In this document: positions 6,062 to 27,520 of the stretch, piece by piece
How the letters are laid out: every line of letters begins with the position of its first letter
Position numbering within the stretch: position 1 is the stretch's first letter
Source of the DNA: Candidatus Thorarchaeota archaeon
Lineage (GTDB): Archaea > Asgardarchaeota > Thorarchaeia > Thorarchaeales > Thorarchaeaceae
Assembly: GCA_008080745.1 (NCBI GenBank)
Contig: SHMX01000001.1
Span: 60,001 to 92,000 of the forward strand
Direction of reading: 5' to 3'
DNA: 32,000 nt
Notes under the pieces: generated by a model
Database searches by the model: none
What the model was told of the DNA's origin: nothing
Seen by the model: the letters and a program-made list of their open reading frames with translations, nothing else
Position numbers and translations under genes: made by a program

Positions 6062-6844
6062 TCATGTGGGAGCTGGCAGATTATAGAAATACAAACCGAG
6101 TAGAGCTAATGCCAACATAACCAAAAGTGTAGCATTTCCTACTAACCATCCTCGAGCTCTTTTCTTTGAGATGTAAATAGGTCCTAGTCGTTTTAATCCA
6201 GTGGGTGCTTGATCAGTTGGATTAGCAGCCCGCCAGAGAATCTCCAAAGGACTAGCATCACTGGGAAATATATCCAAGTAGAGATGGGACGCATAACCAA
6301 TTAGAAATAGAGCAGCAATGTAATATTCAATGTGTGCTCCAACACTAAATGTAGTTGAAGTAGCTATGTTTATAGCTGCATTTAGAACAGTAGTCATTAC
6401 GATAATAAATGGCAATAGAAATGAGTGAAATATGACATTTCTATGACGGGATATTCCCAGAAGAGGAATGTCCCAATCAGGCATAAGTGCTCCCACTACA
6501 GTCATCAAAGCACCCATGAAAATGGATATGTTACCCACGATAGGAACACCAGAGATCCATTGATAGATTATTGTCCCCCCTAAAGAACCAAAACAGAAAG
6601 CGATGAAAGTCATTGCTCCCACAGCACCACGATTGCTTGTTGTCCGAGCACGCATACCCTTGTGGGGTGCCTTATAGTATAGAACAGGCACCAGTAAAGT
6701 AGCAACTATCCCACCCGCTAAGAAATAAGAGAGCATATCAAGAAGGGTGCCGAAGTCAGATTGCCAAACACTAAATGCGTATATCAACGAATAAATTGCA
6801 AAGAACAATGAGAAAGCAAAGAGCATATGAGAAAGTTTGTTCAT
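6062..6844 (-). CDS. Membrane-bound metal-dependent hydrolase (YdjM/DUF457-like)
   Basis: Multiple hydrophobic segments plus the family motifs N-terminal SH, GALMPDWD, RHRNVIFHS and GYASHLYLD. Confidence 0.82.
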   Translation of the reverse strand: MNKLSHMLFAFSLFFAIYSLIYAFSVWQSDFGTLLDMLSYFLAGGIVATLLVPVLYYKAPHKGMRARTTSNRGAVGAMTFIAFCFGSLGGTIIYQWISGVPIVGNISIFMGALMTVVGALMPDWDIPLLGISRHRNVIFHSFLLPFIIVMTTVLNAAINIATSTTFSVGAHIEYYIAALFLIGYASHLYLDIFPSDASPLEILWRAANPTDQAPTGLKRLGPIYISKKRARGWLVGNATLLVMLALALLGLYFYNLPAPT

Positions 6845-6909
6845 AAATTGTCATTCCCCTGATGTTGGTGCTTTACACCAAACTAGAAAATTAGATGCAT
6901 TAGAGGACT

Positions 6910-9255: not shown

Positions 9256-9397
9256 ACTTTCTAGGTGTGCATTAGAATGAGAGGATTATAGAAAATGAAA
9301 AATAATTCGAATAAGATTTCATTATCAATCATATAAATAGGTAGATAAGAGTCAAACATTTATGCGAGAATGTTAATCGAACGATAGGGGCTTTTCA

Positions 9398-10513
9398 ATG
9401 CCGAGTGCAGTCTTTCTAATTCATCTGGATGAAAATCATGGATTTATACTAAAAAAACGACATCCCATCTCATTAAAGGTAACAGAAGCAGACTTGAATA
9501 ATATCTATGTACCCCATGCAGAAAAGGCAGGACTTCATGTCATTGAGTTAGATGACACCCAGATATTATCCTATTCAAAGAATAAAATGCCTGAATGGGT
9601 TGTATGCTTTGAGATGGAAGCAGATGATGATATCAGCTTTGAGAGTTCGCGACTTGAAGGTACTGCAAGATTACTACTGGAACTTGCTGAAACTTCTATT
9701 GATGATATTGATCTTGAAGAAATAATGAAATCTGGAAGTAGCTTGTCTGAAGAGAGTGCAGAACAAAAATTTGCAGGAGTGTTTCTAACCCCCTCAGCAC
9801 CACTTATTCTTGAGCACCTGCAAAGTGCAGAGATTTCAGGATTTGTTTCATCTGCTGCCCTTTCCATGTGGCTAAAAAAGCAGGTTGGAGGAGAAGGAAC
9901 AAATGTGGCTGAAGCAATTAGGCCTCTGATAACCTCTGGCTTGGTAAAAATGGAAATGCTAACAAAGACAAAACAATTTGTCTTCTTGGTCAAGGATGTT
10001 TTCGGTCACAGAGCATCACCAAATGACAGTCTCAAGCTAGCAGAAATGACGAGACCTGATATCTATGAAGAATATAAGGAGCAAGTCGAAAATTTCTTTG
10101 GTGCTGATTCTTCTGGAAGAGGATATAATCCAACAATCATGGAGGAGGAAGAGATGCAGACTATGATTGAAGACAGAGAAAAAGTTGCAGTAAATGTAGC
10201 AAACATAATTCATTACAATGTTATTACTGCACTGCGAAAAGGTCCAATGACACTGGACGAGATTATTATTCAAACCGCATTTCCAAAATCAATTGTACAA
10301 AAGGCTTTGTGGGCATTAAAGTCAAATAGCATCGTTACTTCTTTTGAGGAAGAATCGATATGGGCACTTCTAACAGATCCGGTCTTTGAAAGCTTCATGC
10401 CGAAATATGTGCTTGAGGGAATTTCCAAAAAATGGAACACAAAGGAAGCTGATTCTGCAGAGGTTCAGATGTACTTAGATTTACTCATTAACACTTGGAG
10501 AACAACATCATGA
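9398..10513 (+). CDS. Putative longin/uDENN-like domain protein with winged-helix domains
   Basis: The N-terminus AVFLIHLDENHGFILKKRHP...QILSYS...VVCF resembles uDENN starts (hhhhxFDxxxGPxhxxxYP). Two wHTH-like segments: LILEHLQ...AIRPLITSGLVK and ALRKGPMTLDEIIIQTAFPKSIVQKALWALKSNSIV. Translationally coupled (ATGA) to the GTPase gene. Confidence 0.6.
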   Translation: MPSAVFLIHLDENHGFILKKRHPISLKVTEADLNNIYVPHAEKAGLHVIELDDTQILSYSKNKMPEWVVCFEMEADDDISFESSRLEGTARLLLELAETSIDDIDLEEIMKSGSSLSEESAEQKFAGVFLTPSAPLILEHLQSAEISGFVSSAALSMWLKKQVGGEGTNVAEAIRPLITSGLVKMEMLTKTKQFVFLVKDVFGHRASPNDSLKLAEMTRPDIYEEYKEQVENFFGADSSGRGYNPTIMEEEEMQTMIEDREKVAVNVANIIHYNVITALRKGPMTLDEIIIQTAFPKSIVQKALWALKSNSIVTSFEEESIWALLTDPVFESFMPKYVLEGISKKWNTKEADSAEVQMYLDLLINTWRTTS

Positions 10514-11355
10514 TTCGGGGTATTTACATACTCGGAGAACAAAACAATATACTCTATTCGAAAGAATATGCAAAAAGTGACGCTAGAGCTACTTTAATCG
10601 AATTTCTAGTTAATCTTTCACAATTTCTAAAATCCGTGGATATTGAAAAGACCGAATACATGAATCTTTCAGTTTCTAGACTGTTCTATTCAAAACGGGG
10701 AAACTTTACATTCATTTCTCTTGCAGATAAAGCAGATGAGCCATCTCAGATTGAAGAAAAAACAGATCAGCTCATTGATATATTCATGAAGGATTATGCT
10801 AACTTGGCTCTTGCTGGTCAACCGCTCGATGATTTTGGAGACAAAGTAGACGAGATTGCTGTCACAATGGTCAAGGTAGCCATATTGGGTTTTGCGGGAG
10901 TTGGAAAAACTACTACGCTTCATCTTCTACGAGGGGAAACCCTTCCACTCGTTCATGACCCAACTATTGGAGTATCAATCAAGAAACTCCCCGAAGAGGT
11001 GCAATCCGCGAATATTGTTTTATGGGATCTTGCAGGACAAGCAAGATTTAGTATTCTTTGGTCAAAAATGATTGCAAATGCACAGGTTGTAATTCTTGTT
11101 ACTGATAGCACATTGGAGAATGTACTACGGAGTAAGAAGCTGGTAGCCTTAGTGAAGGAAGAGGTGCCAAACGCCCAAGTCATTGGTATCGCCAACAAAC
11201 AGGATCTTCCTACCGCACTAACACCTGAAAGAGTCGGGCAGATACTTGGGGTTCCAACTTATGAATTGGTGGCTATTGATATATCCTATCGAGACCGACT
11301 TGTGCAATTGATTAGAAGGGCAATTCTTGAAGGAAAAACCTCCGATAAGTCTTAG
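10510..11355 (+). CDS. Longin-domain / small GTPase (Arf/Rab-like) fusion
   Basis: G1 GFAGVGKTT, G2 PTIG, G3 WDLAGQ, G4 NKQD. The N-terminal about 115 aa (MIRGIYILGEQNNILYSKEY...LFYSKRGNFTFISLAD) follows the sigma-adaptin/SRX-type longin pattern. Start moved to ATG 10510, overlapping the upstream TGA. Confidence 0.9.
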   Translation: MIRGIYILGEQNNILYSKEYAKSDARATLIEFLVNLSQFLKSVDIEKTEYMNLSVSRLFYSKRGNFTFISLADKADEPSQIEEKTDQLIDIFMKDYANLALAGQPLDDFGDKVDEIAVTMVKVAILGFAGVGKTTTLHLLRGETLPLVHDPTIGVSIKKLPEEVQSANIVLWDLAGQARFSILWSKMIANAQVVILVTDSTLENVLRSKKLVALVKEEVPNAQVIGIANKQDLPTALTPERVGQILGVPTYELVAIDISYRDRLVQLIRRAILEGKTSDKS

Positions 11356-12324: not shown

Positions 12325-13200
12325 TCATTCAAGAGCCTTTTTAGCTGCCGCGATGTATTTCTTGGCAGTTGCCAATCCAACACCATCAACCTTGTCAGAT
12401 AATTTTTCTGGATCTTCTCTGGAAAGGTTTAGAACCGTCTTGATACCAGCCTCACGAAGTTTCTCTTCCATAGCGGGACCAATTCCTGAAATATCGGACA
12501 ATTTTGGTTTTGGTTTCTTCTTAGCTGGTTTTTTAACCTCTTTCTTAGGTTCTTCCTTCTTGGGCTCTGCTTTCTTTGGAGCTTTCTTAGGTTCTTCTTT
12601 CTTGGGCTCTTCCTTCTTTGGAGCTTTCTTAGGTTCTTCTTTCTTTGGTTTCTTCTTAGGAGCTTCTTTGGGTTTTTCGCTCTTTGGTTCTTTCTCTTCT
12701 TCTTCTTCTTCTTCGAGAGGTTCTACAACCACTTCAGGTCGAGAGTCTTTACGCTCTTTCTTAGCTCCTGCTTCACGACGTTTTCTTTTTAGCTTACTAG
12801 GTTTGACGGAAGTAGGTGCAGCAGCTGCAGCAAGAGCAGCTTCCATCTCTTCAGTAGCAATTGGTTCTGATGGAACAGAGGAGGCAACTTCTTCGAGAAC
12901 ATCTGAAATCATAATTGGCTTTCCCTTCTCTCGTTTTTCCATCTCAGAAGGGGTAGTATATACAACAAAACCGCTCTCACGGATATATGGAACAATAATA
13001 CCTTCTTCTTCCTTCTCCCGTAATATCTTACGTGCAACACTCATACGGATATTGAACTTATTGGCTAAATCATAGGGTGTTACTGAAGATGCCTTAACAA
13101 GATAATCATCAATCTCTTTCAATACTTCTTTTTTGGGAATGGCTTCGCGTATGACTTTCTCAGTCTTTGTCGTCGATCTTCCCCATTTCTTTCGTGACAT
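12325..13200 (-). CDS. rps25e: Ribosomal protein eS25 with a long Lys/Glu/Pro-rich linker and C-terminal helix-hairpin-helix domain
   Basis: KKWGR...SVTPYDLANKFNIRMSVARKILREKEEEGIIVPY...VVYTT matches eS25 (KKWSK...ITP..VSERLKI..SLAR..L.EL...G.IK.V......IYTR). The C-terminal LSDISGIGPAMEEKLREAGIKTV...VDGVGLATAKKYI is a tandem HhH. Confidence 0.85.
   Translation of the reverse strand: MSRKKWGRSTTKTEKVIREAIPKKEVLKEIDDYLVKASSVTPYDLANKFNIRMSVARKILREKEEEGIIVPYIRESGFVVYTTPSEMEKREKGKPIMISDVLEEVASSVPSEPIATEEMEAALAAAAAPTSVKPSKLKRKRREAGAKKERKDSRPEVVVEPLEEEEEEEKEPKSEKPKEAPKKKPKKEEPKKAPKKEEPKKEEPKKAPKKAEPKKEEPKKEVKKPAKKKPKPKLSDISGIGPAMEEKLREAGIKTVLNLSREDPEKLSDKVDGVGLATAKKYIAAAKKALE
12500..12720 (-). repeat. 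Coding low-complexity repeat (KKEEPKK/APKK) in the eS25 linker
   Basis: Recurring TTCTTAGGTTCTTC and TTCTTTGGAGCTTTCTTAGG units on the plus strand. Confidence 0.8.
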
Positions 13201-16050: not shown

Positions 16051-16848
16051 ATGAGGACTACAAGAACGATTCTAAGCAATTTAGCCAAAGGGAAAATCAG
16101 TGAAGAAGAGGCAGAAAAACAGTTACAGGAGCTATCTGTCGGAGTTGTTGGTGATCTTGCAAGAATTGATGGTGCTCGGGAAGGTAGAAGTGGAATACCA
16201 GAGGTGATATTCTCAGAATCAAAAAGTGCCGATGATACCGTCCAGATAGCTAAAACTATGATAGTCCAGTCGGGTTATGCACTTATGACTCGGATAAACA
16301 CAGAGAAGTTGCAGACTCTTCAGAGAGATTTATCAGATTACGAAATTGAAGCAAAAGGGTCAGGAAACCACTACACAGTTTTAGCTAGCTCACCAGACTG
16401 GTCCCCACCCGAACCTACAGGAAAAATTGCGGTGGTGACTGCAGGAACCTCAGATATCCCATTTGCATATGAGTCGATTTTAGTAGCTAAAATTATGGGT
16501 GTTACTGCTATATCCTTCTTTGACGTTGGAGTGGCAGGGATACACCGATTGGTGGAACCCATTAAACAGATTGTGAAGGAAAAAGTATCAGCAGTTGTTG
16601 TATTAGCAGGAATGGAGGGTGCATTACCAACAGTTGTTGCATCTCTAGTGAATGCACCTGTCATTGGAGTGCCAATTCCGACAGGATATGGTCATGGTGG
16701 AAAAGGAGAAACTGCTCTCGCATCCATGCTACAATCCTGTGCTCCAGGACTGGCGGTCGTAAATATCGGGAATGGGCTTGGCGCAGGTTCATTTGCGGCC
16801 TTAATTGCTAAAAGATGCGGTAAGATACAACCTGACTCAGGACGATAG
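16051..16848 (+). CDS. larB: Nickel-pincer cofactor biosynthesis protein LarB / NCAIR mutase (PurE)-related protein
   Basis: ARIDxxRxxRxGIPEVIF, VVTAGTSD, DVGVAGIHRL, AGMEGALP, VIGVPxxxGYG, LQSCAPG, VVNIxNGxGA. The true start is ATG 16051; the 15733 extension is antisense to another gene. Confidence 0.88.
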   Translation: MRTTRTILSNLAKGKISEEEAEKQLQELSVGVVGDLARIDGAREGRSGIPEVIFSESKSADDTVQIAKTMIVQSGYALMTRINTEKLQTLQRDLSDYEIEAKGSGNHYTVLASSPDWSPPEPTGKIAVVTAGTSDIPFAYESILVAKIMGVTAISFFDVGVAGIHRLVEPIKQIVKEKVSAVVVLAGMEGALPTVVASLVNAPVIGVPIPTGYGHGGKGETALASMLQSCAPGLAVVNIGNGLGAGSFAALIAKRCGKIQPDSGR

Positions 16849-17970
16849 AATAGTATTTGCAATATCAAGATACACATCTACGGACTGATACATTTGATCA
16901 AGACGGATGAATTCATCTGGTTGGTGTGCTTGTTCAATGGAACCAGGACCACAAATAACATTGATGATACCGACTTTTGGTTGAAGTACTGAACAGTCAG
17001 TTCCATAGGTAGCAGCAGAGGGCTCTGGTCTTCTTCCCGTGACTTTTTCTACGGCATCAAGAGTTGCTCCTACAATGGGACTATCAACGGGTGTTGAAAC
17101 TGCAGGTTTTCCATGTATATACTGAAGATCTACAAAATCAGCTAGGCCTGCTTCAATGAATCTCTCACGAATCTGTTGCATTAACCCTTCTGTTGTTTGT
17201 CCCTTAACAATTCGCATATCAAGATGAACCTCGCAATGATCAGGAACAACATTAATTTTGATACCTCCGTTTATCATACCAACATTTAGAGTAGGAACAC
17301 CAAGTAAATTATCTTCTTCAAAAGGAAATGCTTTACGAGTTATGCTTGCAAGTGCTTTGACAGCTAGGGCAATCGCATTAATCCCCTCTTCAGGTCTTGA
17401 GCCGTGAGCAGACTTGCCTTGTGCGACTATTTTAGACCAAAACATTCCTTTTTCTCCAACAAGAACATCAAGACCAGTAGGTTCAGCACAAACGCCATAT
17501 TTTACGTCAGATAGCAATCCACTTTTTGCAACTTCTTCTGCTCCAGAACAGCCACTCTCCTCATCGGAGGTAGCGAGCATCATAAGAGGCACTTTTCTTT
17601 TTGATTCCTTATAGAGTATCATTGTTTCAGTAAGAGCGGTTACAGGACCTTTCATGTCACAGGTTCCTCTACCATACATTTTACCTCCATCAATCGCTCC
17701 AGCAAAAGGAGGATAGGTCCAGTTTTCCTTCGGCCCAGCTGGAACCGTATCCATGTGCCCATGAATCACAAGAGGTCCCACTTCATCCTCATGAGTTGAA
17801 AAAATGAGGTTAGGCCGTTCGGATGGACCAACAGATCTACAATTAATCCCATAATCCTCCAAATGTCGTTTCAAGACCTTTGCTACTTCTTCTTCTCGAC
17901 CGGGAGGGCTCTCAGAATTTGTTTGCACCAGAGTCTTGAGAAGAGTCATCATTCGCTTTTGATCGGTCAT
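16837..17970 (-). CDS. M20 family metallopeptidase/deacylase (ArgE/DapE/LysK-like)
   Basis: HGHMDTV, YGRGTCDMKG, DEESG, EPT, GKSAHGS, GIKINVVPD, AHQPDE. Its 3' end overlaps convergent larB by 12 bp. Confidence 0.92.
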   Translation of the reverse strand: MTDQKRMMTLLKTLVQTNSESPPGREEEVAKVLKRHLEDYGINCRSVGPSERPNLIFSTHEDEVGPLVIHGHMDTVPAGPKENWTYPPFAGAIDGGKMYGRGTCDMKGPVTALTETMILYKESKRKVPLMMLATSDEESGCSGAEEVAKSGLLSDVKYGVCAEPTGLDVLVGEKGMFWSKIVAQGKSAHGSRPEEGINAIALAVKALASITRKAFPFEEDNLLGVPTLNVGMINGGIKINVVPDHCEVHLDMRIVKGQTTEGLMQQIRERFIEAGLADFVDLQYIHGKPAVSTPVDSPIVGATLDAVEKVTGRRPEPSAATYGTDCSVLQPKVGIINVICGPGSIEQAHQPDEFIRLDQMYQSVDVYLDIANTILSS

Positions 17971-18035
17971 TGTATCACAGTTTGTGTTAAGGGAGAAACA
18001 TATCTAAGAACATTCCCCTAAGTATTTGTAGAAGA

Positions 18036-18052
18036 ATGAGTATGATACTCAT
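18036..18052. promoter_or_regulatory. Perfect 17-bp palindrome, candidate transcription-factor operator
   Basis: ATGAGTAT-G-ATACTCAT directly abuts the 5' stem of the C/D sRNA and lies 66-82 nt upstream of the divergent M20 gene. Confidence 0.55.
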
Positions 18053-18124
18053 GCAGGCCAATGATGTTATTACCCCTGTCTGACCTGAAATGGAATGATT
18101 ACTCAAGAGCAGACTGAGGCCTGC
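18053..18124 (+). ncRNA. Box C/D methylation-guide sRNA
   Basis: Terminal stem GCAGGCC (18053-59)/GGCCTGC (18118-24); C box ATGATGT (18061-67); 12-nt guide TATTACCCCTGT; D' box CTGA (18080-83); C' box ATGATTA (18095-101); 12-nt guide CTCAAGAGCAGA; D box CTGA (18114-17). Order and spacing are canonical for archaeal C/D sRNAs. Confidence 0.85.
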
Positions 18125-18561
18125 TCTTTTCAATAAGGTGGCTGGGTCCATAGGTCCCAAAAGCACAGTATTTTGTCCTTGATATCATCCATTCTAAGAG
18201 TTTGTGTTTCAATCCGGGCATTGTTATTAAGAAATAAATAGTGTCGGATAGATATCGAGACCCCGCCTCTGTGCTGAATAAAACATTCTCTCAGTTTTAG
18301 AGGTATGGCGTTTATGATTTGATTATGGACCGCAGCCAATTGTTTATTCTCCAATTTGTGGTAGTGGCACGAACTGAGAGATCGCGTTATAACAGATTAG
18401 ACAGGTTCCAGTTATATGCTAACGGATTATCTTGTTCTGCTCTAAAAGCGGTTATAATGTGATGAAAGTATGGTTAGAAAGGGTCTCAATTTTTTTGATT
18501 TGGTTATTTGAAAAGCATAAGATAGTAAGGTCTCTTTAATATACTCACACTAAACAATTGG

Positions 18562-18768
18562 TCATTCCTTAGGTAACCGGTATTGAAAGCCTCTATCAGA
18601 AGCAGATAACGCTCTAGCAGAGATTATTTCTTCACGTCTACTAAGTACAATCGACTCAGAATCTATCTCGAGAACTATTTCTTCGCCTTCTCGAACAAAG
18701 TTCTTGATTTCCTCCCGGGTCATACTACTAAGAATAGATTTAATTTGGTCCGCATATTTTCTTGACAT
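18562..18768 (-). CDS. Small hypothetical protein (68 aa)
   Basis: ATG start, helix-then-strands composition (MTREEIKNFV..EEIVLEIDSESIVL), no competing ORF on either strand, and an AT-rich box about 20-30 nt upstream. Confidence 0.6.
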   Translation of the reverse strand: MSRKYADQIKSILSSMTREEIKNFVREGEEIVLEIDSESIVLSRREEIISARALSASDRGFQYRLPKE

Positions 18769-18801
18769 TTTTTTTCACGGTGCTACGTTATTTTTCAAGG
18801 C

Positions 18802-18862
18802 ATGTATCATGTGAAAATGACACTGAGATTGTGGCACATAGGATATGTATCACATGATACAT
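18802..18862. promoter_or_regulatory. Nested inverted repeats built on ATGTATCA/TGATACAT
   Basis: ATGTATCATGTG (18802-13) is the reverse complement of CACATGATACAT (18851-62). ATGTATCA-CA-TGATACAT (18845-62) is itself palindromic. Confidence 0.5.
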
Positions 18863-18881
18863 TTACCTTTCTATGATATGT

Positions 18882-20357
18882 TCAAGGACGATACGCAAAG
18901 GGGTGTCTAGCAGACTCCTTTCTGAGTTTTACTTCAGAGATACCTTCTCTCCTCTCAATTGCTCGTCTAATTGCAAAACGGACAGCACGGAAGTTGTTTA
19001 TATGTACCCTTTTTGGATTCACAGCATTTGGATGAACAAATACATTTGCTGCAATCACTATGTCCTTGAGAAGTTCTTCAGGAAGAATATGATCTGTGAC
19101 TGTACGATTCACTGCATCAACAACAGCTTGTTGGGCAACGTTGTAGACCATATCTTTGTGTTTCTCGTGAGTAATGGTCACAGTGGGCGCAAATATTGTA
19201 AGTGGTTCAAGGCCGCTGATAATATTTGAACTGTGATATCCTTCTACAGTTTTCCCAGCATTCTCTACTGCTGTTTTGAGTGGCCCGTCTCGTAAACCCA
19301 AGACAAGATCAACATGTGCTACCTCTTGCCCCCCACCACATAAAGCCTCTCCGTGAAGGAATTCAAGACCAGTAATGGTTTCTGGAACCATTCCATGAGC
19401 CTTCGGATAACTTTCTGCAACAAGGATATTGTCACCCTTCTGGAATTTCACAGGACCCCGTTTTATCAGAAGAAGATCTTCCAGACAAGTACGGATTTCG
19501 TCAATATCATCATAAGAAGGTACATCACCTATCAGCAGAGGTTGTCTTGGCGCTCCTACAGTAATTCCCATCATATTGAGGGCAGCTTTGACAATAGCAC
19601 CTCCACCGCGATTAACAATCAATCTCACAGTCTTCTGAATGCTTCTTTGAATAATGAGAGCCTCATTAAGATCGCCTTGAGCTAATTGTGCTTGCATTTT
19701 GATATAGCGGTCAGGAAAAATGTTCGCACTTGCCAGAATAGCACCATCGCACCCGGTAGCAAATGCAGGTAGGGCAACTTCATCATGACCAATTACAACT
19801 TGGAATTCCTCTGGTCTTCGAACAAGAATAGTTGTCAGGTTTACTAAATTACCACTGGAGTCTTTCATTCCAATGATTCCATCCACCTCTCTTAATCCAT
19901 CAATAAGCTTCCAATCCAGCATTACACCCGTTACCTGAGGAATATTATAGAGGAATATTGGCAATTCACAGGCTCGAGCTATCTTCTCATAATGCTCAAA
20001 AATCTCCTTATTCGTAGGTTTGAGGAAATAGGGAGAAACTACTAGAGCTGCATCTGCACCAAATTCAGCCGCACGATGGGTGATTTTAATCGCGTCGTTT
20101 GTGTAGGCAGCTCCAGTCCCTGCTAAAACAGGTACTCGTCCTTTTGCAGCATCACAAGCAATTTTGATTGCCTCAACTTTTTCTTCAAAACGCATACTCG
20201 TGAATTCACCAGTTGTGCCACAAGGCACAATTCCAGTCGCACCTGCTTTAATTACGTAATCAATAAGCGCACGATATTGATCCTCATTAACACCATCCTC
20301 ATCAAAGGGGGTTACAAGTGCTGGGAAAACACCTTTGAATTTAAAATCCTTTGCCAT
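18882..20357 (-). CDS. DapA-family class I aldolase fused to a formaldehyde-activating enzyme (Fae) domain, paralog B
   Basis: PALVTPF, CGTTGEF, LYNIP, GMKDSS (Schiff-base Lys). C-terminal GEALCGGGQEVAHVDL...VFVHP...NNFRAVRFAIRRA aligns with Fae (GEALVGDGNEVAHIDL...VFIHW...YNYEATKLSIQRA). ATG 20357 follows GGAGGT. Confidence 0.88.
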   Translation of the reverse strand: MAKDFKFKGVFPALVTPFDEDGVNEDQYRALIDYVIKAGATGIVPCGTTGEFTSMRFEEKVEAIKIACDAAKGRVPVLAGTGAAYTNDAIKITHRAAEFGADAALVVSPYFLKPTNKEIFEHYEKIARACELPIFLYNIPQVTGVMLDWKLIDGLREVDGIIGMKDSSGNLVNLTTILVRRPEEFQVVIGHDEVALPAFATGCDGAILASANIFPDRYIKMQAQLAQGDLNEALIIQRSIQKTVRLIVNRGGGAIVKAALNMMGITVGAPRQPLLIGDVPSYDDIDEIRTCLEDLLLIKRGPVKFQKGDNILVAESYPKAHGMVPETITGLEFLHGEALCGGGQEVAHVDLVLGLRDGPLKTAVENAGKTVEGYHSSNIISGLEPLTIFAPTVTITHEKHKDMVYNVAQQAVVDAVNRTVTDHILPEELLKDIVIAANVFVHPNAVNPKRVHINNFRAVRFAIRRAIERREGISEVKLRKESARHPFAYRP

Positions 20358-20362
20358 TGAAT

Positions 20363-21763
20363 TTACCTCCATATCTCTCCTAGAGCTACAGAAACAGCTT
20401 CTTCTGCTGCATGAGTTATCGCTCTTCGATCCCGAGAGTTAAGGTCGACATCCATAGCCATAATCATCACGTATTTCTCAATTTTTTCTTCAGGAATCTT
20501 GTTTGACTTCAATAATTCTGAAACCGCCTTTGCCGCTCCAGACTGAACAGGTCCATAGAATAAGGAGGCTTGACGCATTGAACGAATCTGTCTCATGGGT
20601 AGCATCAAGCTGCTTGGCCGTACTCGGAGATTGGGTTCAAGAATAATCGATAATGCCTCATAACCAATCTTTGGAGTGGTTAGCAGTCTGACAAATACTT
20701 CTCCTAGAGGACCGTCAGCTAGACCAGAAATCACGCTTGCGGATACAATATCGTTTGCACCATTACCAATACCCATATCGCCCAACGAATCCTTAGCAAC
20801 ACCATAATCTGATACGAGGTCTCTCATATCAACCGCTTTTACTAAATCTGGATGTTGCAGGGGTTTAATGAGTTTCAGTTTCTCAAGTTCAATCCGAACT
20901 TCTTCTCGAAGTTCACGGGTAAGAGTACCACCAGTATTTAGTGGCATTCGATCCCGCCCAGCATTGATACCCATCATCCTCAAAGCTGCCTTTGCAGGTG
21001 GGGCACCGCCATTTCGAGTGATAATTCTTGAAAGAGTTTGAACAGAATGCTGTAATTGCATTGCCTCGTCAAATTTCCCTTTTTTGACCTTATCCATGAT
21101 ATCCAACCAGATGTGGGGGATAACATTTGCCGATGCAAGAATAGCTGCACTGGCTCCTGCGGCGATGGCGGATAAGAAGCACTCATCATGACCAATCAAT
21201 ACAGGAATCTTATTTTTGACCTTTTCAATTAGATCCAGTGTATGGGGAATGTTTCCACTACTGTCTTTTATTCCCACAACATTATCAACTTCAACAAGAT
21301 CCTCAACAAGTGAGCTATTAAGAACACCCAAGGTACATTGTGGAATGTTGTAGAGAATAATGGGAAGATCACTCTTTCTAGCTACGGTCTCATAATGTTC
21401 ATAGTAGCCTTTGTCAGAGGGACGCAAATAGAAGGGAGAAATGACCAGGGCTGCATCACATCCAATGTCTGCAGCAAATTTCGTCAGCGCAACTGTTGCC
21501 TTGGTACTATTTTGTCCAGTTCCTGCAACTATGGGAACTCTGCCATCAACGAATTCCACTGCAAGTTTTAGCAGTTTCTTTCGTTCTTCAGTTCGCATGT
21601 AGACGAATTCACCAGTTGTTCCAGCTGGAACAACACCTGTCGCACCATTTTCAATGGTGTAATCGATTACTTCTCTGAAACCTTCTTCCATGATGTCGCC
21701 GTCTTTGGTGAAAGGTGTCACCAGTGCGGGCATCACTCCTTTAGGAATGAATTTCTTTGACAT
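20363..21763 (-). CDS. DapA-family class I aldolase fused to a Fae-like domain, paralog A
   Basis: PALVTPF, AGTTGEF, PFY, LYNIP, GIKDSS. C-terminal GPLGEVF...EPNLRVRPSSLM...RQASLFYGPVQSGAAKAV aligns with Fae (PNLPCKPNTLM...RQAVQMFGPAQHGVAMAV). Confidence 0.88.
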   Translation of the reverse strand: MSKKFIPKGVMPALVTPFTKDGDIMEEGFREVIDYTIENGATGVVPAGTTGEFVYMRTEERKKLLKLAVEFVDGRVPIVAGTGQNSTKATVALTKFAADIGCDAALVISPFYLRPSDKGYYEHYETVARKSDLPIILYNIPQCTLGVLNSSLVEDLVEVDNVVGIKDSSGNIPHTLDLIEKVKNKIPVLIGHDECFLSAIAAGASAAILASANVIPHIWLDIMDKVKKGKFDEAMQLQHSVQTLSRIITRNGGAPPAKAALRMMGINAGRDRMPLNTGGTLTRELREEVRIELEKLKLIKPLQHPDLVKAVDMRDLVSDYGVAKDSLGDMGIGNGANDIVSASVISGLADGPLGEVFVRLLTTPKIGYEALSIILEPNLRVRPSSLMLPMRQIRSMRQASLFYGPVQSGAAKAVSELLKSNKIPEEKIEKYVMIMAMDVDLNSRDRRAITHAAEEAVSVALGEIWR

Positions 21764-22177: not shown

Positions 22178-24643
22178 TTAAGCAAAATCGACTCTACGTG
22201 CTGCATAAACAAGTGACTCGTTGAAGTATTTACCAATAAGTTTTGCAATTACTGGTCCCACAATATAGTTAATGTCACCAGGCATCATGGCAGAGATGTT
22301 GGTTTTTCTAGAGAGTTTGCCCTTTCTTCTCAACGCGTTAATCTCTCTTCGTATAATATTTCGTGCTTCTTCGAGGGTCATAGGTGTAGCAGTTGGTCCA
22401 ATTAAGCCATCTTTGATATCGGATATCGCACGTTGAACAAACACTGAAAGGTTGTCAATATCATCAGCATTAACCATGTGTGCTTTGCCATGGGTTTCAC
22501 AATCACCCTCTTTGGGTGTACTGCCACAAATACGACAGAAGGGTCTTCCGCGATGCATCTTAACATAATATGCCAAAAGGTTAGCACATTTTGCATCATC
22601 TGTTGCGGTCCATTCAAGACCTTTCGTACCGACTCGTCCTATAGCTCTGAACACGGTGTGACTTTTCGTATATATCCAAATAAGTGGACTGAGAGAGGCT
22701 CGTTTTCGTTCAGCAATAAGCTCTTCTTCGATTTTTGCCTGAACTGCAGCCTCTTCTTTTTCCATCTTCTTAACCCGTTCTCGTTTAAGGAATCGTTGCA
22801 TCACATCAAATGCAATAGTATAGTTGTCAAATTCTAATTTATCGACATTCAATGGTTTATCAATGACCCCTGTGAAAAGTGGACTTGGAGTAGTACGTAA
22901 TAGTTTATCAGCATGTTCCATATCACGGTTTGATAACCTAGCATGGAACCATGCAGATATTGATGCAGCATGAAGGTGTGGATGGACTGTCTTCATCTCG
23001 TATATTCTCTCCTGAGTCAAGTCGATTAGAATCTCCTCACGAAGGTTCTGTAGATGAGTATCCGCATCCTCATAGATGCTCTTCAGTAACGCCTTTGTTC
23101 TTAGAAGATCTTGCTTTGAACGATGATAAGTTTCTACAACCCTTACAACTGGTGTAAGTGTTGGAATTATCGCATACCATGCTAAATCATCACGTAAAGC
23201 TACCATGGTTTCGCTCTGAATTCTCTGATGACTCATATCTGATGCAGAACTAACACCCATGGACTTTAGAGCTCCACTTTTTACTAATTCTCTTGCTTCC
23301 AAGAGTTTCTTTACTTCATCTGGAGGGGGAACACGCATCTTCTTCTTGAGAGCTTCTAAGACGGGAACCTCCATTCCAAGTAAGCTTTTTCGATCTTTGG
23401 TAAGAAATGTGATGTCAATCTTATCTAACTCAGAGGCTCGAAGTCCCCTTGCTTTTAGCATACCCTTAACAGGTTTCTCAAGAGTCTGCTCTAATTTATC
23501 AATGGTTTTAAGAGATCTTTCAAGACGTTCTAATTCTTCCTTAGTGAAAGCTGGAGCTTCAGGCTGTCCTTCGGGTTTAATCTCCGTTTCTGCGCCAACA
23601 TCCTTAGAAGCTTGTAATAGGCCCGCAACCAGTTCTTCTACTGAACGTATTCCTTTACGTCCTAGAGTGGATTGGGAAGTACCAGGAGGGGTATTAGTGT
23701 AATAATCCAGAATGTCAAATGCAATTTGTGAGTACTCTTGTAGAACCTGTGCGAATCTCTCTGCGACAAATGCTCCCAATTCAGATTCAAGTTTTTCAAT
23801 TGTATAGGATTCTTTCAATTTGCTCTCAATAAAATCTAGGATTTCAATCCGAAGTGCATGAACAGTCTTTGCAATGTTTGTTTCTATTGTACCTTTACAC
23901 AAGTTGTCAATAACCGTGTCAACAATGTGTTTCCAAGCCTCTGAATTTATCGCAGAAGGCGTTATTGTACTTCGAAGATATGTTGTTTCTCCAATAATCT
24001 GTTCAATTCCCCGTTTCAATACGGATATTTCTACAATTTCTTGATCGTGAGGACGGGTGAGTTCATCAATTAGAGAAAGTGAGCTTTCCTTCAGACCTGA
24101 AGCCTTGATGTATAATTCTTCACGCCATTTATCCGCCCATCCTGTAATTGCATTGAGAAAGTCAACTCTACAGTTAGGAGAATACTCGCTCGGTATGTTC
24201 GTGAGATATTCTTTGATGAGATCAGATACTCTACTACGAGCTGTATCATCTGTCGATGCAGTAGTGTAATCATTACAAAAGGTAATCACAAATTCACTGA
24301 TAGTTTTGAGAGTATGGAGACCCTCATTGTATCGTTTGTCTAACACAAGCTTAATCTCTTCCCGGAGAAGAGTCTGTTCATCCTTTGCGACCTTTTCTTT
24401 CTCTTCTGCAGGAACATCTCCTGATTCCTCATAGCTGATTACAATAGTACCCTGATATGTATGAAGATAAAAAGCTGCGAATTCACGTATGAGATCTTCA
24501 AGGAATACCGCACCATCAAGTCTTCGTTTGAATAATTGACGGTCTCGGGAGCTCCGCATATGGGTTACCAAGGCCTCACCAAGAAAAATCTCTTTTCCAG
24601 CCTCACTCATCTGACGGGTCTTGACTAACCAATTGCTAGACAT
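22178..24643 (-). CDS. Large hypothetical alpha-helical protein (821 aa) with a C-terminal CxxC..CxxH Zn-binding motif
   Basis: Uninterrupted 2.4-kb ORF containing CRICG...CETHG near the C-terminus. Its ATG abuts the upstream stop (TAAATG) and follows GAGGAGG. Confidence 0.8.
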   Translation of the reverse strand: MSSNWLVKTRQMSEAGKEIFLGEALVTHMRSSRDRQLFKRRLDGAVFLEDLIREFAAFYLHTYQGTIVISYEESGDVPAEEKEKVAKDEQTLLREEIKLVLDKRYNEGLHTLKTISEFVITFCNDYTTASTDDTARSRVSDLIKEYLTNIPSEYSPNCRVDFLNAITGWADKWREELYIKASGLKESSLSLIDELTRPHDQEIVEISVLKRGIEQIIGETTYLRSTITPSAINSEAWKHIVDTVIDNLCKGTIETNIAKTVHALRIEILDFIESKLKESYTIEKLESELGAFVAERFAQVLQEYSQIAFDILDYYTNTPPGTSQSTLGRKGIRSVEELVAGLLQASKDVGAETEIKPEGQPEAPAFTKEELERLERSLKTIDKLEQTLEKPVKGMLKARGLRASELDKIDITFLTKDRKSLLGMEVPVLEALKKKMRVPPPDEVKKLLEARELVKSGALKSMGVSSASDMSHQRIQSETMVALRDDLAWYAIIPTLTPVVRVVETYHRSKQDLLRTKALLKSIYEDADTHLQNLREEILIDLTQERIYEMKTVHPHLHAASISAWFHARLSNRDMEHADKLLRTTPSPLFTGVIDKPLNVDKLEFDNYTIAFDVMQRFLKRERVKKMEKEEAAVQAKIEEELIAERKRASLSPLIWIYTKSHTVFRAIGRVGTKGLEWTATDDAKCANLLAYYVKMHRGRPFCRICGSTPKEGDCETHGKAHMVNADDIDNLSVFVQRAISDIKDGLIGPTATPMTLEEARNIIRREINALRRKGKLSRKTNISAMMPGDINYIVGPVIAKLIGKYFNESLVYAARRVDFA

Positions 24644-27397
24644 TTAGTTCTCCTCCTCCATCCTGAGATAGTTATTCCCAATCGTTACAGTCAATTCACA
24701 ATCTTCAATCTCGTAAGTGACTAGGTAAATCAATCCAGGGACCTTGGGATCTCTTAGATATGCCCGAGTTGGTCTTGGTAACAGACGTCCTAATCCCCGC
24801 ATAACAGAATTCATCATGAATTCTAGAAATTCTTCACCAATACTGATGTTGATGCCCTTTGTTGCGTCAGTTCCCTCTGCTGCTAGTTTTTCCAACCGTT
24901 CAGCAAACAAAGACTCCATTTTGTCCTGATGCGTGTCCATCTTCAAGAGCTTCTCATTGAGTAAATCTCGAAGATCGACATAAAGTAACATCTCTTCTGA
25001 AGGTTCTGGCTTCTCTGGAACAGGGTGTTCCGCCTTCAATGGATAATCCTCCTCTATTGCTCTGAGTCTTGGCTCCAATGGGGGAGGCTCTACGGGTTTG
25101 GTTGTGGGTCCAGTTGGCTCAGTAGGTTTTGGAGGGGGTGGAGGAGGTACTTCTACTGTAGGATCAGTCTGTGATTTTTCAACAGCCTTGTCATACTTTC
25201 GTTTCGCCTCTTCGTACTGTGCTGATTTCCATTTGTAATCTTCATGTGCTTTTTTGTATTCTGATTCTTCTTTATCGAATTTTTCTACCTGTGCATGATA
25301 TGCCTTCATTTCTAAATTATATCGGGCACGAGTATCAGCGAGTAGTTCTTGTCTCCGAGCATTATGCTCTCGAATTGGTTTGTTAAGTGCTTCAATTCGG
25401 TCACATTCTGCTTGCCAAGCGTCGACTTTAGTTTGGTATTCCTGTTCTCGAATGGTAGCCTCGTACTCAACTTTGCCAGCAATAGTACGTGCAGTTACAC
25501 CCTCTCCAACCTTGTTATGTACGAAGCGTTGGAGGTCCATCAATTTCGTGGAGAGAGGGGTGGCTTCATCAAATTGAGAATCTAAGGTTGCAATCCATCT
25601 TTTTGCCTCTTCAATCCATTCTTCTGGTTTTTCCTCTTGAGCATCAAGAATTATCCTTAATTCCTGAATTAGCTTGGCATCCTCATTGCGTATCTTGGAT
25701 ATTATTCTCCGAATCAATGGTTTGGAGAGAAGTGTATCCGCGATATCGGGGATGATATCAGCTACCAGATTTTCGAATTTTATAAGTAAAGCATCTAACT
25801 TTTGTCCCCAATCAGATAGTTTGACCTCATCAGCAGATGAATCCTCAGCATGGGTAAGAATAATTTCTGCACGTGTGATGTTAGCTATATCTGCAAATTT
25901 TATCAGAGACCAAATGTCAATTTCTTTGAAGGCATTAGACATGTCACGAGCAATGATTTGCATTAAAGTTCCGAAGTCATCTTCACGAGAACCCTCGAAC
26001 GCCTTCCTGTCAAATACCGCATTTAATTGGAGATATAATTCACTGTAGAATTTTTCGAACAACATTACATCCATTTCATCAGTTGTGTTTCCTGTGTTCT
26101 CTGAACGGAATTCCTGCATAGCCGCAAAGAAGACTTTCCTAGCAGCAGTTACAACAATATACTGTCCAAGTTCTTCAGCAAAGTATTGAGAAACACGTTT
26201 ACAATAAGCCAAGAAGTAACGGAATACACTCTTTAATTGCCAAGCACGTATTTGCCCAATGATGGGCATTTCGCGCTTTCCGGATTCCACAATCTCCTCA
26301 GCTAGTCCTTTAGCAAAATCCTTCTCGATACCCTCAAGACGATGTCCATTCAGACGGATATCTTCAAGCAATGTTTCTAGATGTTTATCCAAAGTGAGTT
26401 GTTTTCCAGAGGTGATATGAGCCTCGACTATTTCAGAAAATACTTCAACGGCGTTTACCAAGTGCTCAACAAAATCCGACGCCTTAGATCTCAAGTCAGA
26501 TAACTCGTCTACAGTCACTACTCCTGTTCCGATATATTTGCTCAGAGATTCTATTGCAGTTCGAGCGATATCAACCTCTTCAGCACTATATGCATAGGTG
26601 TTAACTTCAGCAAGTATTGCACGTCCAATTTCTGGAACTTTATGAGCTAGAGTATGTATTGCTGTTGGAGTAAGAATTCTATGTCTGAAATGGTTAACAA
26701 TAAGATCTTCAGAGCCCTCCGGAAGAAGTAATTCGTGGCTTAGTCTTTTTATGATTTTAGGTCCTGGGGGTAACATTGTGAAATCATCACTATAACTCAA
26801 CTTGATAATTGCCTCGTTATCCACATGTTCTGGCTTTAGTACTAAAGAATCCCAAGAACCTTGGAACTGTCGATCCATCATCTGGACATAGATTACATTA
26901 TTGAAACGATCATTGAATCTCCGTAAGACAGTAAGCCCATCAGTGTCATAACTGACATCATTTTCAACAATGGCTTGTTCGATGTCAGAGATTTTTTTCG
27001 CAAGCTTTTTCATGTGGTCGTCAATTTTGAAGGGATCAACAACACCCTTTTCCCAGCTCAATACACAGACATGTGCACCAACACCTTCAGATTGACCACC
27101 AGAGATAATGAGTTCCTCAGGTAAAACATCCGGTCCAGGTACTTGGTCCAACTCCCACTCAACTGAGAGAAGTTCTAGTCCTTCAGAGTTGAGGACACCA
27201 TCTCGAATAAGGAATATTAGTGGAGTTATATTCAAGGCAACAGTATCTGAATTTTGTTGCATCATGCTTCCAGACCCAATGGCACTACCCAATGGGAATC
27301 CTTGACTTGTTGTAGATCCCAGAACAGATGCTGATGCCATTCGAATTGCTTCCACAGTGCTCGGTGTCTGAATTTTACTTTTTTCAGCTCGCGCCAT
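24644..27397 (-). CDS. Large hypothetical protein (about 917 aa) with a coiled-coil and proline-rich insert
   Basis: Uninterrupted ORF; ATG 27397 follows GGAGG. Charged heptads at about 25170-25470 are followed by VPPPPPPKPTEPTGPTTKPVEPPPLEP (about 25070-25155). Confidence 0.8.
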   Translation of the reverse strand: MARAEKSKIQTPSTVEAIRMASASVLGSTTSQGFPLGSAIGSGSMMQQNSDTVALNITPLIFLIRDGVLNSEGLELLSVEWELDQVPGPDVLPEELIISGGQSEGVGAHVCVLSWEKGVVDPFKIDDHMKKLAKKISDIEQAIVENDVSYDTDGLTVLRRFNDRFNNVIYVQMMDRQFQGSWDSLVLKPEHVDNEAIIKLSYSDDFTMLPPGPKIIKRLSHELLLPEGSEDLIVNHFRHRILTPTAIHTLAHKVPEIGRAILAEVNTYAYSAEEVDIARTAIESLSKYIGTGVVTVDELSDLRSKASDFVEHLVNAVEVFSEIVEAHITSGKQLTLDKHLETLLEDIRLNGHRLEGIEKDFAKGLAEEIVESGKREMPIIGQIRAWQLKSVFRYFLAYCKRVSQYFAEELGQYIVVTAARKVFFAAMQEFRSENTGNTTDEMDVMLFEKFYSELYLQLNAVFDRKAFEGSREDDFGTLMQIIARDMSNAFKEIDIWSLIKFADIANITRAEIILTHAEDSSADEVKLSDWGQKLDALLIKFENLVADIIPDIADTLLSKPLIRRIISKIRNEDAKLIQELRIILDAQEEKPEEWIEEAKRWIATLDSQFDEATPLSTKLMDLQRFVHNKVGEGVTARTIAGKVEYEATIREQEYQTKVDAWQAECDRIEALNKPIREHNARRQELLADTRARYNLEMKAYHAQVEKFDKEESEYKKAHEDYKWKSAQYEEAKRKYDKAVEKSQTDPTVEVPPPPPPKPTEPTGPTTKPVEPPPLEPRLRAIEEDYPLKAEHPVPEKPEPSEEMLLYVDLRDLLNEKLLKMDTHQDKMESLFAERLEKLAAEGTDATKGINISIGEEFLEFMMNSVMRGLGRLLPRPTRAYLRDPKVPGLIYLVTYEIEDCELTVTIGNNYLRMEEEN

Positions 27398-27520
27398 ATT
27401 CAAGCCTCCAATGTAAGGAGTATTCATCTATATTCTAAGGGAGCGGCAATTTCACATGAATTGGTCCCAGACTGACATATTGGAGACCTGTCTTTTGAAC
27501 TTAGCTGGGTCGAACTTGAA

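Follow-up and report, generated by a model that had tools for sequence, protein, structure and literature searches.

Two adjacent genes, here called A and B, on the minus strand of a 32,000-nucleotide stretch of Candidatus Thorarchaeota DNA (assembly GCA_008080745.1, contig SHMX01000001.1, positions 60,001 to 92,000; hereafter the window) encode paired fusions of a pyruvate-type aldolase barrel with a domain of the formaldehyde-activating enzyme (Fae, tetrahydromethanopterin hydro-lyase). Together they probably make up a single enzyme, connecting a C4 keto acid close to homoserine with tetrahydromethanopterin (H4MPT), the one-carbon carrier of archaea. The barrels belong to the dihydrodipicolinate synthase (DHDPS, DapA) family. 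The fusion family is uncharacterised and systematically mislabelled. The features of the pair, numbered from the first letter of the window, are the following:

20363 to 21763, minus strand: gene A, an open reading frame (ORF) of 466 aa, DapA-derived barrel and partial Fae domain
20894 to 21742, minus strand: barrel of A (aa 8–290), from Pfam and alignment
20381 to 20764, minus strand: Fae-like domain of A (aa 335–461), from alignment to the Fae structure 1y5y and group consensus
20358 to 20371, minus strand: A/B junction, GGAGG over the TAA stop of A and 5 nt to the ATG of B, from direct reading of the sequence
18882 to 20357, minus strand: gene B, an ORF of 491 aa from MAKDF, DapA-derived barrel and complementary partial Fae domain
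19533 to 20342, minus strand: barrel of B, from Pfam and alignment
18897 to 19352, minus strand: Fae-like domain of B, from alignment to 1y5y and group consensus

The sequence-only reading described A and B as co-oriented neighbours separated by 5 nt, with a Shine-Dalgarno sequence over the upstream stop, and the junction letters (...TGG AGG TAA attca ATG GCA) agree with this description. Read from its first ATG, gene B would extend over 18882–20372 and encode 496 aa, as an in-frame ATG at 20372 adds 5 aa. The likely start is 20357, because about 100 B orthologues or orthologue clusters are 491–492 aa long and begin with MAKDF. The two proteins share 37% identity over their full length. Pfam recognises a DHDPS domain (aa 8–290, E 5e-77) and a Fae domain (aa 335–461, 84 bits) in A, and a DHDPS domain (aa 11–280, E 5e-72) and a Fae domain (aa 341–492, 101 bits) in B. 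Both C-terminal domains thus score as Fae (cut-off 27 bits), as had been proposed, and both stay under the 118-bit cut-off of the NCBIfam Fae equivalog TIGR03126 (A 77 bits, B 112 bits). The barrels exceed the cut-off of the dapA equivalog TIGR00674 (226 and 232 bits, cut-off 206), which accounts for the database label ‘DapA’; this score is outweighed by the loss of Arg138 and the absence of the pathway, both described below.

In E. coli DapA, Arg138 binds the carboxylate of aspartate semialdehyde (ASA). DapA positions were read from an alignment with the E. coli protein (taken from NC_000913), the YNVPSRT motif of which is replaced by YNIPQCT in A (aa 138–144) and YNIPQVT in B (aa 137–143). 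The position of Arg138 is therefore taken by Cys in A and by Val in B, and Ser137 is replaced by Gln. This loss, already noted in the sequence-only reading for both genes, extends to the whole family: none of the 119 A and 107 B orthologues from Thorarchaeota (0/226), nor any of seven proteins from other lineages, has Arg at this position, where Cys, Val or Leu is found instead. The active-site motif of the family can be written as YNIPQ[CVL]TG / KDSSG / GHDE. The barrels otherwise resemble DapA (TIGR00674; 2yxg, 1dhp), their ancestor, by their fold, their Schiff-base lysine, their Tyr133 and Thr44 positions and their predicted tight-dimer interface. Their best relatives of solved structure are true DHDPS enzymes, among them that of M. 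jannaschii (2yxg). The barrel of A has GTTGE (48–52), SPFYL (109–113, retaining the Tyr107 equivalent) and Lys166 in KDSSG; that of B has GTTGE (47–51), SPYFL (108–112, with Phe instead of Tyr107) and Lys165 in KDSSG. Both barrels also have the equivalent of Tyr133 and the threonines of GTTGE, and the proton-relay triad Tyr133-Thr44-Tyr107' is whole in A, whereas B has Phe at 107. Among the orthologues, the equivalents of Thr44, Thr45, Tyr133 and Lys161 (K166) are found in 119/119 A proteins and that of Tyr107 in 105/119. In B proteins, Phe occupies the Tyr107 position in 106/107, and the Schiff-base lysine (K165) is retained in 103/107 and replaced by Ser in the four others.

The genome is 98% complete, and A and B are its sole DHDPS-family and sole Fae-family genes. 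In this genome, no match to dapB was found and the best match to lysA is below cut-off (87 bits against 298), so that the barrels, to which a C-terminal Fae domain has been added, do not have the partners that DapA has in the diaminopimelate (DAP) pathway. An M20 deacylase (ArgE/DapE family, TIGR01910, 233 bits) is encoded downstream of the pair (16837–17970, minus strand); it provides no evidence for the DAP pathway, because it is under all the dapE and argE equivalog cut-offs. A control is offered by family f9 from Lokiarchaeia: 26–28 of its 31 near-complete genomes carry dapB with a canonical dapA (encoding a protein of ~300 aa) alongside, and about half of these near-complete genomes also harbour a separate gene encoding a DHDPS-Fae protein of ~500 aa. 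In a maximum likelihood tree of the barrels, those of the fusions all group in a single clade, with 98/100 support, that is separate from plain DapA. Taken together, the loss of Arg138, the absence of dapB and lysA, the separate clade and the canonical dapA-dapB of Lokiarchaeia besides the fusion indicate that the fusion is a paralogue that arose from DapA and almost certainly took on another function. This agrees with the earlier proposal that A and B are not lysine-biosynthesis enzymes.

The sequence-only reading also considered each gene to hold a complete barrel and a C-terminal Fae domain. Both domains are indeed present in each protein, but the barrel of B has the Phe substitution mentioned above and neither Fae domain is whole. 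Moreover, A and B are not equivalent copies, a point absent from that reading: the Fae domain of each is a half that complements the other. This emerged from an alignment, compared module by module, of canonical Fae domains from Asgard genomes with the single-gene fusions of Lokiarchaeia and the 119 A and 107 B proteins, the canonical motifs being GEAL..AHxDL in the N-terminal module, RPNL..GPAQ in the central one and FIHP..RxHP in the C-terminal one. Both B and the single-gene form carry the first module (GEAL..AHxDL..G..GP, including His22), which A has lost. The second (LxxILEPNL..KP..RQA..YGPxQ) is shared by A and the single-gene form, that of B being degenerate and shortened by a deletion. 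The third (FVHP..NNY..ARHPF, including the C-terminal arm) again occurs in B as well as the single-gene form, and A ends before it. Neither A nor B alone has the full set; the single-gene form of Lokiarchaeota has all three modules.

Relative to Methylorubrum extorquens Fae (1y5y), A aligns over residues 4–130 and B over residues 8–167. A retains the central module (EPNL 376–379, YGPVQ 403–407), has Ser instead of His22 (VSASV 340–344) and lacks both the FVHP motif and the C-terminal arm. B retains His348 (AHVDL 347–351), which corresponds to His22, as well as FVHP (440–443) and the C-terminal arm (ARHPF 483–487), but its central EPNL...GPxQ module is reduced to a degenerate remnant (GLEPLT 382–387, with no GP before Gln). 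Several columns are invariant in A (E369, E376, P377, R397, Y403-G404-P405 and Q407) or near-invariant in B (H348, D350, L351, F440-V441-H442 and R484-H485-P486), which indicates strong purifying selection on the retained modules. The same complementary pattern is common to four lineages, i.e. Thorarchaeota and the loci L016, L018 and L020. In the three latter, A lies upstream and B downstream, with ends overlapping or nearly abutting, and the His22 position of the A-type chains of these three other lineages is occupied by Gln, Tyr or Val. In the L020 pair (6544–9449, GCA_003560875.1), the Fae halves still show the A/B pattern, and a RibD_C-family gene is found directly upstream. Both barrels of this pair have lost the threonines of GTTGE as well as the Schiff-base lysine, the latter replaced by Ala and Leu, so that aldolase catalysis would be dispensable in this lineage.

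The Fae of M. extorquens (1y5y/1y60) is reportedly a homopentamer that binds H4MPT between adjacent subunits; its C-terminal arm is said to become ordered on H4MPT binding (1y60) and its His22 to be catalytic. Combined with this location of the cleft, the complementary modules suggest, as the simplest reading, that a duplication was followed by complementary loss. A and B would then be obligate partners in a hetero-oligomer, in which a single kind of competent, composite Fae site is located at the B/A interface. A prediction of the full-length A+B complex gave an ipSAE of 0.73 (0.00 for the best control), a mark reached by 58/80 solved complexes and 2/110 mismatched pairs, with a partner pLDDT of ~90 and three runs agreeing on at least 95% of the contacts. 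The predicted interface is the tight-dimer face of DHDPS (residues 110–116, 143–145 and 272–280 of A with residues 109–115, 142–144 and 271–279 of B). The prediction resembles solved DHDPS homodimers, may simply reproduce them, and cannot separate a heterodimer from a homodimer. As it includes no Fae-Fae contacts, the predicted interface covers the barrels alone and says nothing on the composite Fae site.

The closest known system is Fae-Hps (NF009833), an archaeal formaldehyde-handling fusion of Fae to the OMP-decarboxylase-fold enzyme 3-hexulose-6-phosphate synthase (Hps) that is carried by many Asgard genomes. Like A and B, it joins Fae to an aldolase-type TIM barrel in H4MPT-using archaea, and its barrel releases or consumes formaldehyde. 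The systems differ by the partner, which is here a DapA-derived class I pyruvate aldolase instead of Hps, by the order of the domains (here barrel then Fae) and by the Fae site, split over two paralogous chains in Thorarchaeota and unsplit in Fae-Hps. Only the Fae portions of A and B match NF009833 (61 and 91 bits, cut-off 274). Among 301 Asgard genomes, the Thorarchaeota family f1 has two weak Fae matches, corresponding to the A/B pair, in 71/76 genomes and no Fae-Hps. Other Asgard families carry classical Fae-Hps (ORFs of ~400–440 aa, 220–240 bits), and families f9, f12 and f13 have an additional single DHDPS-Fae gene, the Fae part of which scores 190–208 bits.

The closest homologues of A and B come almost all from metagenome-assembled genomes of Thorarchaeota/Promethearchaeota and are labelled ‘4-hydroxy-tetrahydrodipicolinate synthase’; the 119 Thorarchaeota orthologues of A share 63–87% identity with it. 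When 1.84 billion representatives were searched exhaustively with a profile, the fused architecture was retrieved in only ~15–20 clusters at 50% identity, below which all were plain DapA proteins of ~300 aa. Fused clusters also occur in Lokiarchaeota, in a bin labelled Korarchaeota/Thermoproteota, in a bin labelled Anaerolineae and in others. In the barrel tree, the A clade and the B clade each include members from Thorarchaeota, L016 and L020, indicating that the duplication is old, and the single-gene forms of Lokiarchaeota constitute a third clade. In the literature searched, no paper was found that pairs Fae with DHDPS/DapA as a fusion, nor is the fusion described in those papers on Asgard archaea in which Fae is mentioned. 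The complementary Fae halves, the tallies of homoserine dehydrogenase, the dapA-dapB control in Lokiarchaeia and the count of neighbours of the 426-aa barrel (40 against 7; see below) are new here. The DNA is from marine sediment: the only sequencing runs listed as containing it are two DNA runs of such sediment, possibly its source, and no RNA run is listed.

The genome encodes the H4MPT-dependent enzymes Mch (429 bits) and Mer (416 bits, cut-off 349), which supports the sequence-only reading; Mtd was not found in it. Neither Hps nor Fae-Hps is present in the genome, and a coupling of the pair to the reverse ribulose monophosphate pathway was therefore rejected. In the same way, a replacement of PanB by a class I route to ketopantoate was rejected, as a normal PanB is encoded (389 bits). 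Homoserine dehydrogenase (Hom, PF00742) is missing from the genome and was found in 14/14 control genomes. In the fusion-carrying families, Hom is found in 3/76–77 (f1, Thorarchaeota), 0/19 (f12) and 0/3 (f13) genomes. It is also found in 0/11 genomes of f27, most of which have two Fae matches, the fusion being unconfirmed there. In families devoid of the fusion, it is found in 20/28, 17/21, 7/11, 4/4, 5/5 and 5/6 genomes. Among the 31 near-complete genomes of the mixed family f9, Hom is present in 15/16 genomes without the fusion versus 4/~15 with it. These counts suggest a negative association between the fusion and Hom, among genomes whose kinship makes them not independent.

A second line of evidence comes from a protein of 426–428 aa. 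In Lokiarchaeota-type loci, either this protein or a U32-peptidase-like protein of 312–315 aa is encoded directly upstream of the single fusion. Genes of the former are located at 46951–48243 of contig C9 of the genome under study, G000 (6951–8243 of locus L024), at 6683–7966 of L014 and at 1237–2523 of L041, the 426-aa protein being 68% identical to the product of the C9 gene. They belong to a very large, highly conserved and unnamed family (65–89% identity) that extends from Thorarchaeota to Bathyarchaeia and some bacteria. Searches of Pfam, NCBIfam and the PDB sequences gave no match to it, and the Atlas gave no usable one. Its AlphaFold2 model is TIM-barrel-like at low confidence (pLDDT 57), and Foldseek returned weak matches to aldolases and methylenetetrahydrofolate reductase (MTHFR), none of them significant (the best, to MTHFR, has E 1.8e-3 and TM 0.3–0.4; all TM ≤ 0.46). 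The family was searched across the phylum and the GTDB species genomes, and the neighbours were typed at 52 loci outside Thorarchaeota. The DHDPS-Fae fusion adjoins the 426-aa barrel in 40/52 of these loci, in tandem downstream in Loki-, Heimdall-, Hermod- and Odinarchaeia and divergently upstream in Bathyarchaeia; an Anaerolineae bin shows the order barrel-A-B. In 7/52 loci, the barrel lies instead beside a block that encodes an aminotransferase, Hom and an aldehyde:ferredoxin oxidoreductase (AOR), often with a second aminotransferase, or Hom and AOR. Neither the fusion nor the Hom block is found in 4/52. In the operons of the Hod/Heimdall type, the barrel gene is the sole one without an assigned function beside those of the aminotransferase, Hom and AOR.

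The 40 versus 7 neighbour counts indicate that the fusion and the Hom block are alternative partners of the same barrel enzyme. The metabolite that both blocks could reach would be 4-hydroxy-2-oxobutanoate (HOB), since Hom and an aminotransferase lead to it from ASA and a pyruvate aldolase from pyruvate and formaldehyde; no other reaction was found that would fit both as simply. The link of the pair to HOB and the homoserine node, put forward in the sequence-only reading, thereby gains comparative support, from this alternation and from the negative association with Hom.

Within the genome, the gene of the 426-aa barrel adjoins genes of an ECF riboflavin-type S component, a rubrerythrin and a 501-aa ThrC-like PLP enzyme with a C-terminal PadR-type DNA-binding domain (C9:44646–46151, minus strand; L024 4646–6151). 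The U32-peptidase-like protein (L042 1604–2551; L043 1813–2760, minus strand; L038 421–1359, minus strand) has an Atlas feature score of 0.98 and no Pfam match. It replaces the 426-aa barrel beside the single-gene fusion in Lokiarchaeota-type families that are devoid of this barrel, and the profiles of the two families are only weakly related (hhalign probability 6%, E 0.006).

Taken as a whole, these data lead to the following model, which we hold at somewhat under an even chance. A and B would be the two subunits of one enzyme, in which a class I (Schiff-base) aldolase descended from DapA is combined with a Fae site split between the chains. The barrel would form an enamine on pyruvate, that of A being the strictly conserved one, and would make or break the C3-C4 bond of HOB (HOB <-> pyruvate + formaldehyde). 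Formaldehyde would be exchanged with H4MPT at a site made up of elements of B (His348, FVHP and the C-terminal arm) and of A (EPNL...YGPxQ). The product, methylene-H4MPT, would be joined to the C1 pathway by Mer and Mch. We infer the heteromer, the hand-over of formaldehyde and the direction of the flux, as well as HOB as the substrate, the latter by analogy and from gene context.

In the catabolic direction, HOB could yield pyruvate and formaldehyde, and the latter methylene-H4MPT; this direction has a parallel in Fae-Hps and fits the AOR of the alternative operon, an enzyme that usually acts oxidatively. In the anabolic direction, pyruvate and a C1 unit could yield HOB and then homoserine in genomes devoid of Hom, which fits the scarcity of Hom in fusion-bearing genomes. 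More doubtful is the proposal that A/B and the 426-aa barrel constitute a natural pathway from pyruvate and CH2=H4MPT to HOB, homoserine and its derivatives, which would replace Hom in Thorarchaeota, many Lokiarchaeia and Bathyarchaeia. Such chemistry (pyruvate + formaldehyde -> HOB -> homoserine) would resemble that of the engineered homoserine cycle, the core of which consists of a HOB aldolase and a HOB aminotransferase (He et al. 2020, reviewed in PMC9214030). That cycle is synthetic and uses promiscuous E. coli aldolases and free formaldehyde, whereas the enzyme considered here would be a natural one coupled to H4MPT.

Several observations weigh against this model. The pair has no metabolic neighbours in the window, where it is accompanied by genes of an Arf-like GTPase, an eS25 fusion, CutA, the M20 deacylase and giant proteins without known family. 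The association with Hom rests on few independent lineages, as kin share traits; about one-third of the fusion-bearing f9 genomes also carry Hom, and families f17 and f20 have neither the fusion nor Hom. An anabolic route leading to threonine would need a homoserine kinase, and none was found in the genome (thrB 36 bits; the proposed alternative kinase TIGR02535 296 bits against 446); ThrC-like genes are present. Furthermore, ASA already has a consumer: an operon (C1:522940–527500; L022 4940–9500) encodes HcyBio (PF01837 and ferredoxin), a hypothetical protein (NF003324), Asd and aspartate kinase. We take it to be the methanogen-type route from ASA to homocysteine, and it suggests that homocysteine is made from ASA in this way in a genome lacking Hom. 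The 426-aa barrel could itself form HOB, leaving another role to the DapA-like barrel. Finally, the L020 pair and the four B proteins with Ser instead of the Schiff-base lysine suggest that the barrel may be catalytically dispensable in some lineages.

These last cases also bear on an alternative that we consider unlikely, in which the pair would be the Fae of the organism, devoted to formaldehyde detoxification or capture into H4MPT. The barrels would then serve as an oligomerisation or regulatory scaffold and catalyse no formaldehyde-related aldolase reaction. The retention of the pairs in spite of the dead barrels in L020 and in four Thorarchaeota B proteins is consistent with such a role, as are the relaxation of the B barrel at the Tyr107 position and the fact that, with no Fae-Hps, A and B hold the only Fae domains of the genome. 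Catalysis is however supported by the four active-site residues found in all A orthologues and by the family's own active-site motif. Moreover, Lokiarchaeia retain the fusion despite a high-scoring Fae-Hps, and the linkage to an enzyme-like barrel gene, together with the alternation with Hom, suggests a metabolic step beyond detoxification.

Slightly less likely still, in our view, is that the pair is an aldolase or hydroxymethyl-transferase acting on other substrates (either a 2-oxo acid other than pyruvate as acceptor of the C1 unit, e.g. 2-oxobutanoate or hydroxypyruvate, or another small aldehyde, with the Fae-like part binding the pterin) and that the 426-aa barrel is the true enzyme that forms or cleaves HOB. 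Specificity is unreadable from sequence, and the loss of Arg138 shows only that the aldehyde partner lacks the carboxylate of ASA. In addition, the 426-aa barrel, found beside the aminotransferase, Hom and AOR, could connect HOB to central metabolism, and its TIM-barrel-like model has weak fold matches to aldolases and MTHFR. However, confidence in this model is low and none of its fold matches reaches significance (all E ≥ 1.8e-3), the formation of ketopantoate is already covered by PanB, and the Fae-Hps precedent favours formaldehyde itself. As for a genuine 4-hydroxy-tetrahydrodipicolinate synthase role in lysine biosynthesis, the equivalog scores, the solved DHDPS relatives and the making of ASA in the genome (asd, 407 bits) would speak for it, but it is rejected as largely refuted by the absence of dapB and lysA, the loss of Arg138, the separate clade and the distinct canonical dapA adjoining dapB in relatives that have the DAP pathway.

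Elsewhere in the window, the Arf-family small GTPase (10495–11355, plus strand) has an N-terminal extension of ~125 aa, and the eS25 ribosomal protein (12325–13200, minus strand) is extended to 291 aa and has a C-terminal helix-hairpin-helix domain. A gap of ~900 nt without convincing ORF (17971–18881) separates the M20 deacylase gene from gene B. Two abutting genes at 22178–27427 (minus strand) encode proteins of 821 and 927 aa without Pfam family.

The fusion genes are annotated as ‘DapA’ in hundreds of genomes, from Asgard archaea, Bathyarchaeia and some Chloroflexi. Reconstructions of metabolism therefore assign them a step of lysine biosynthesis that is almost certainly not theirs, and overlook the connection of 2-oxo acids with the H4MPT-dependent C1 metabolism. 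The split Fae site offers a clean example of duplication and complementary loss in an enzyme with an inter-subunit active site, and the repeated pairing with the conserved 426-aa barrel points to a second enzyme worth characterising. If the proposed model is true, A and B would provide the second natural coupling of Fae with an aldolase after Fae-Hps, and, among natural enzymes, the first one devoted to an aldol reaction of pyruvate with formaldehyde that is connected with a C1 carrier. If the anabolic pathway is true, the engineered homoserine cycle would have a counterpart in nature. The model would bear on how archaea of sediments ferment C4 amino acids or make them, as well as on synthetic formaldehyde assimilation.

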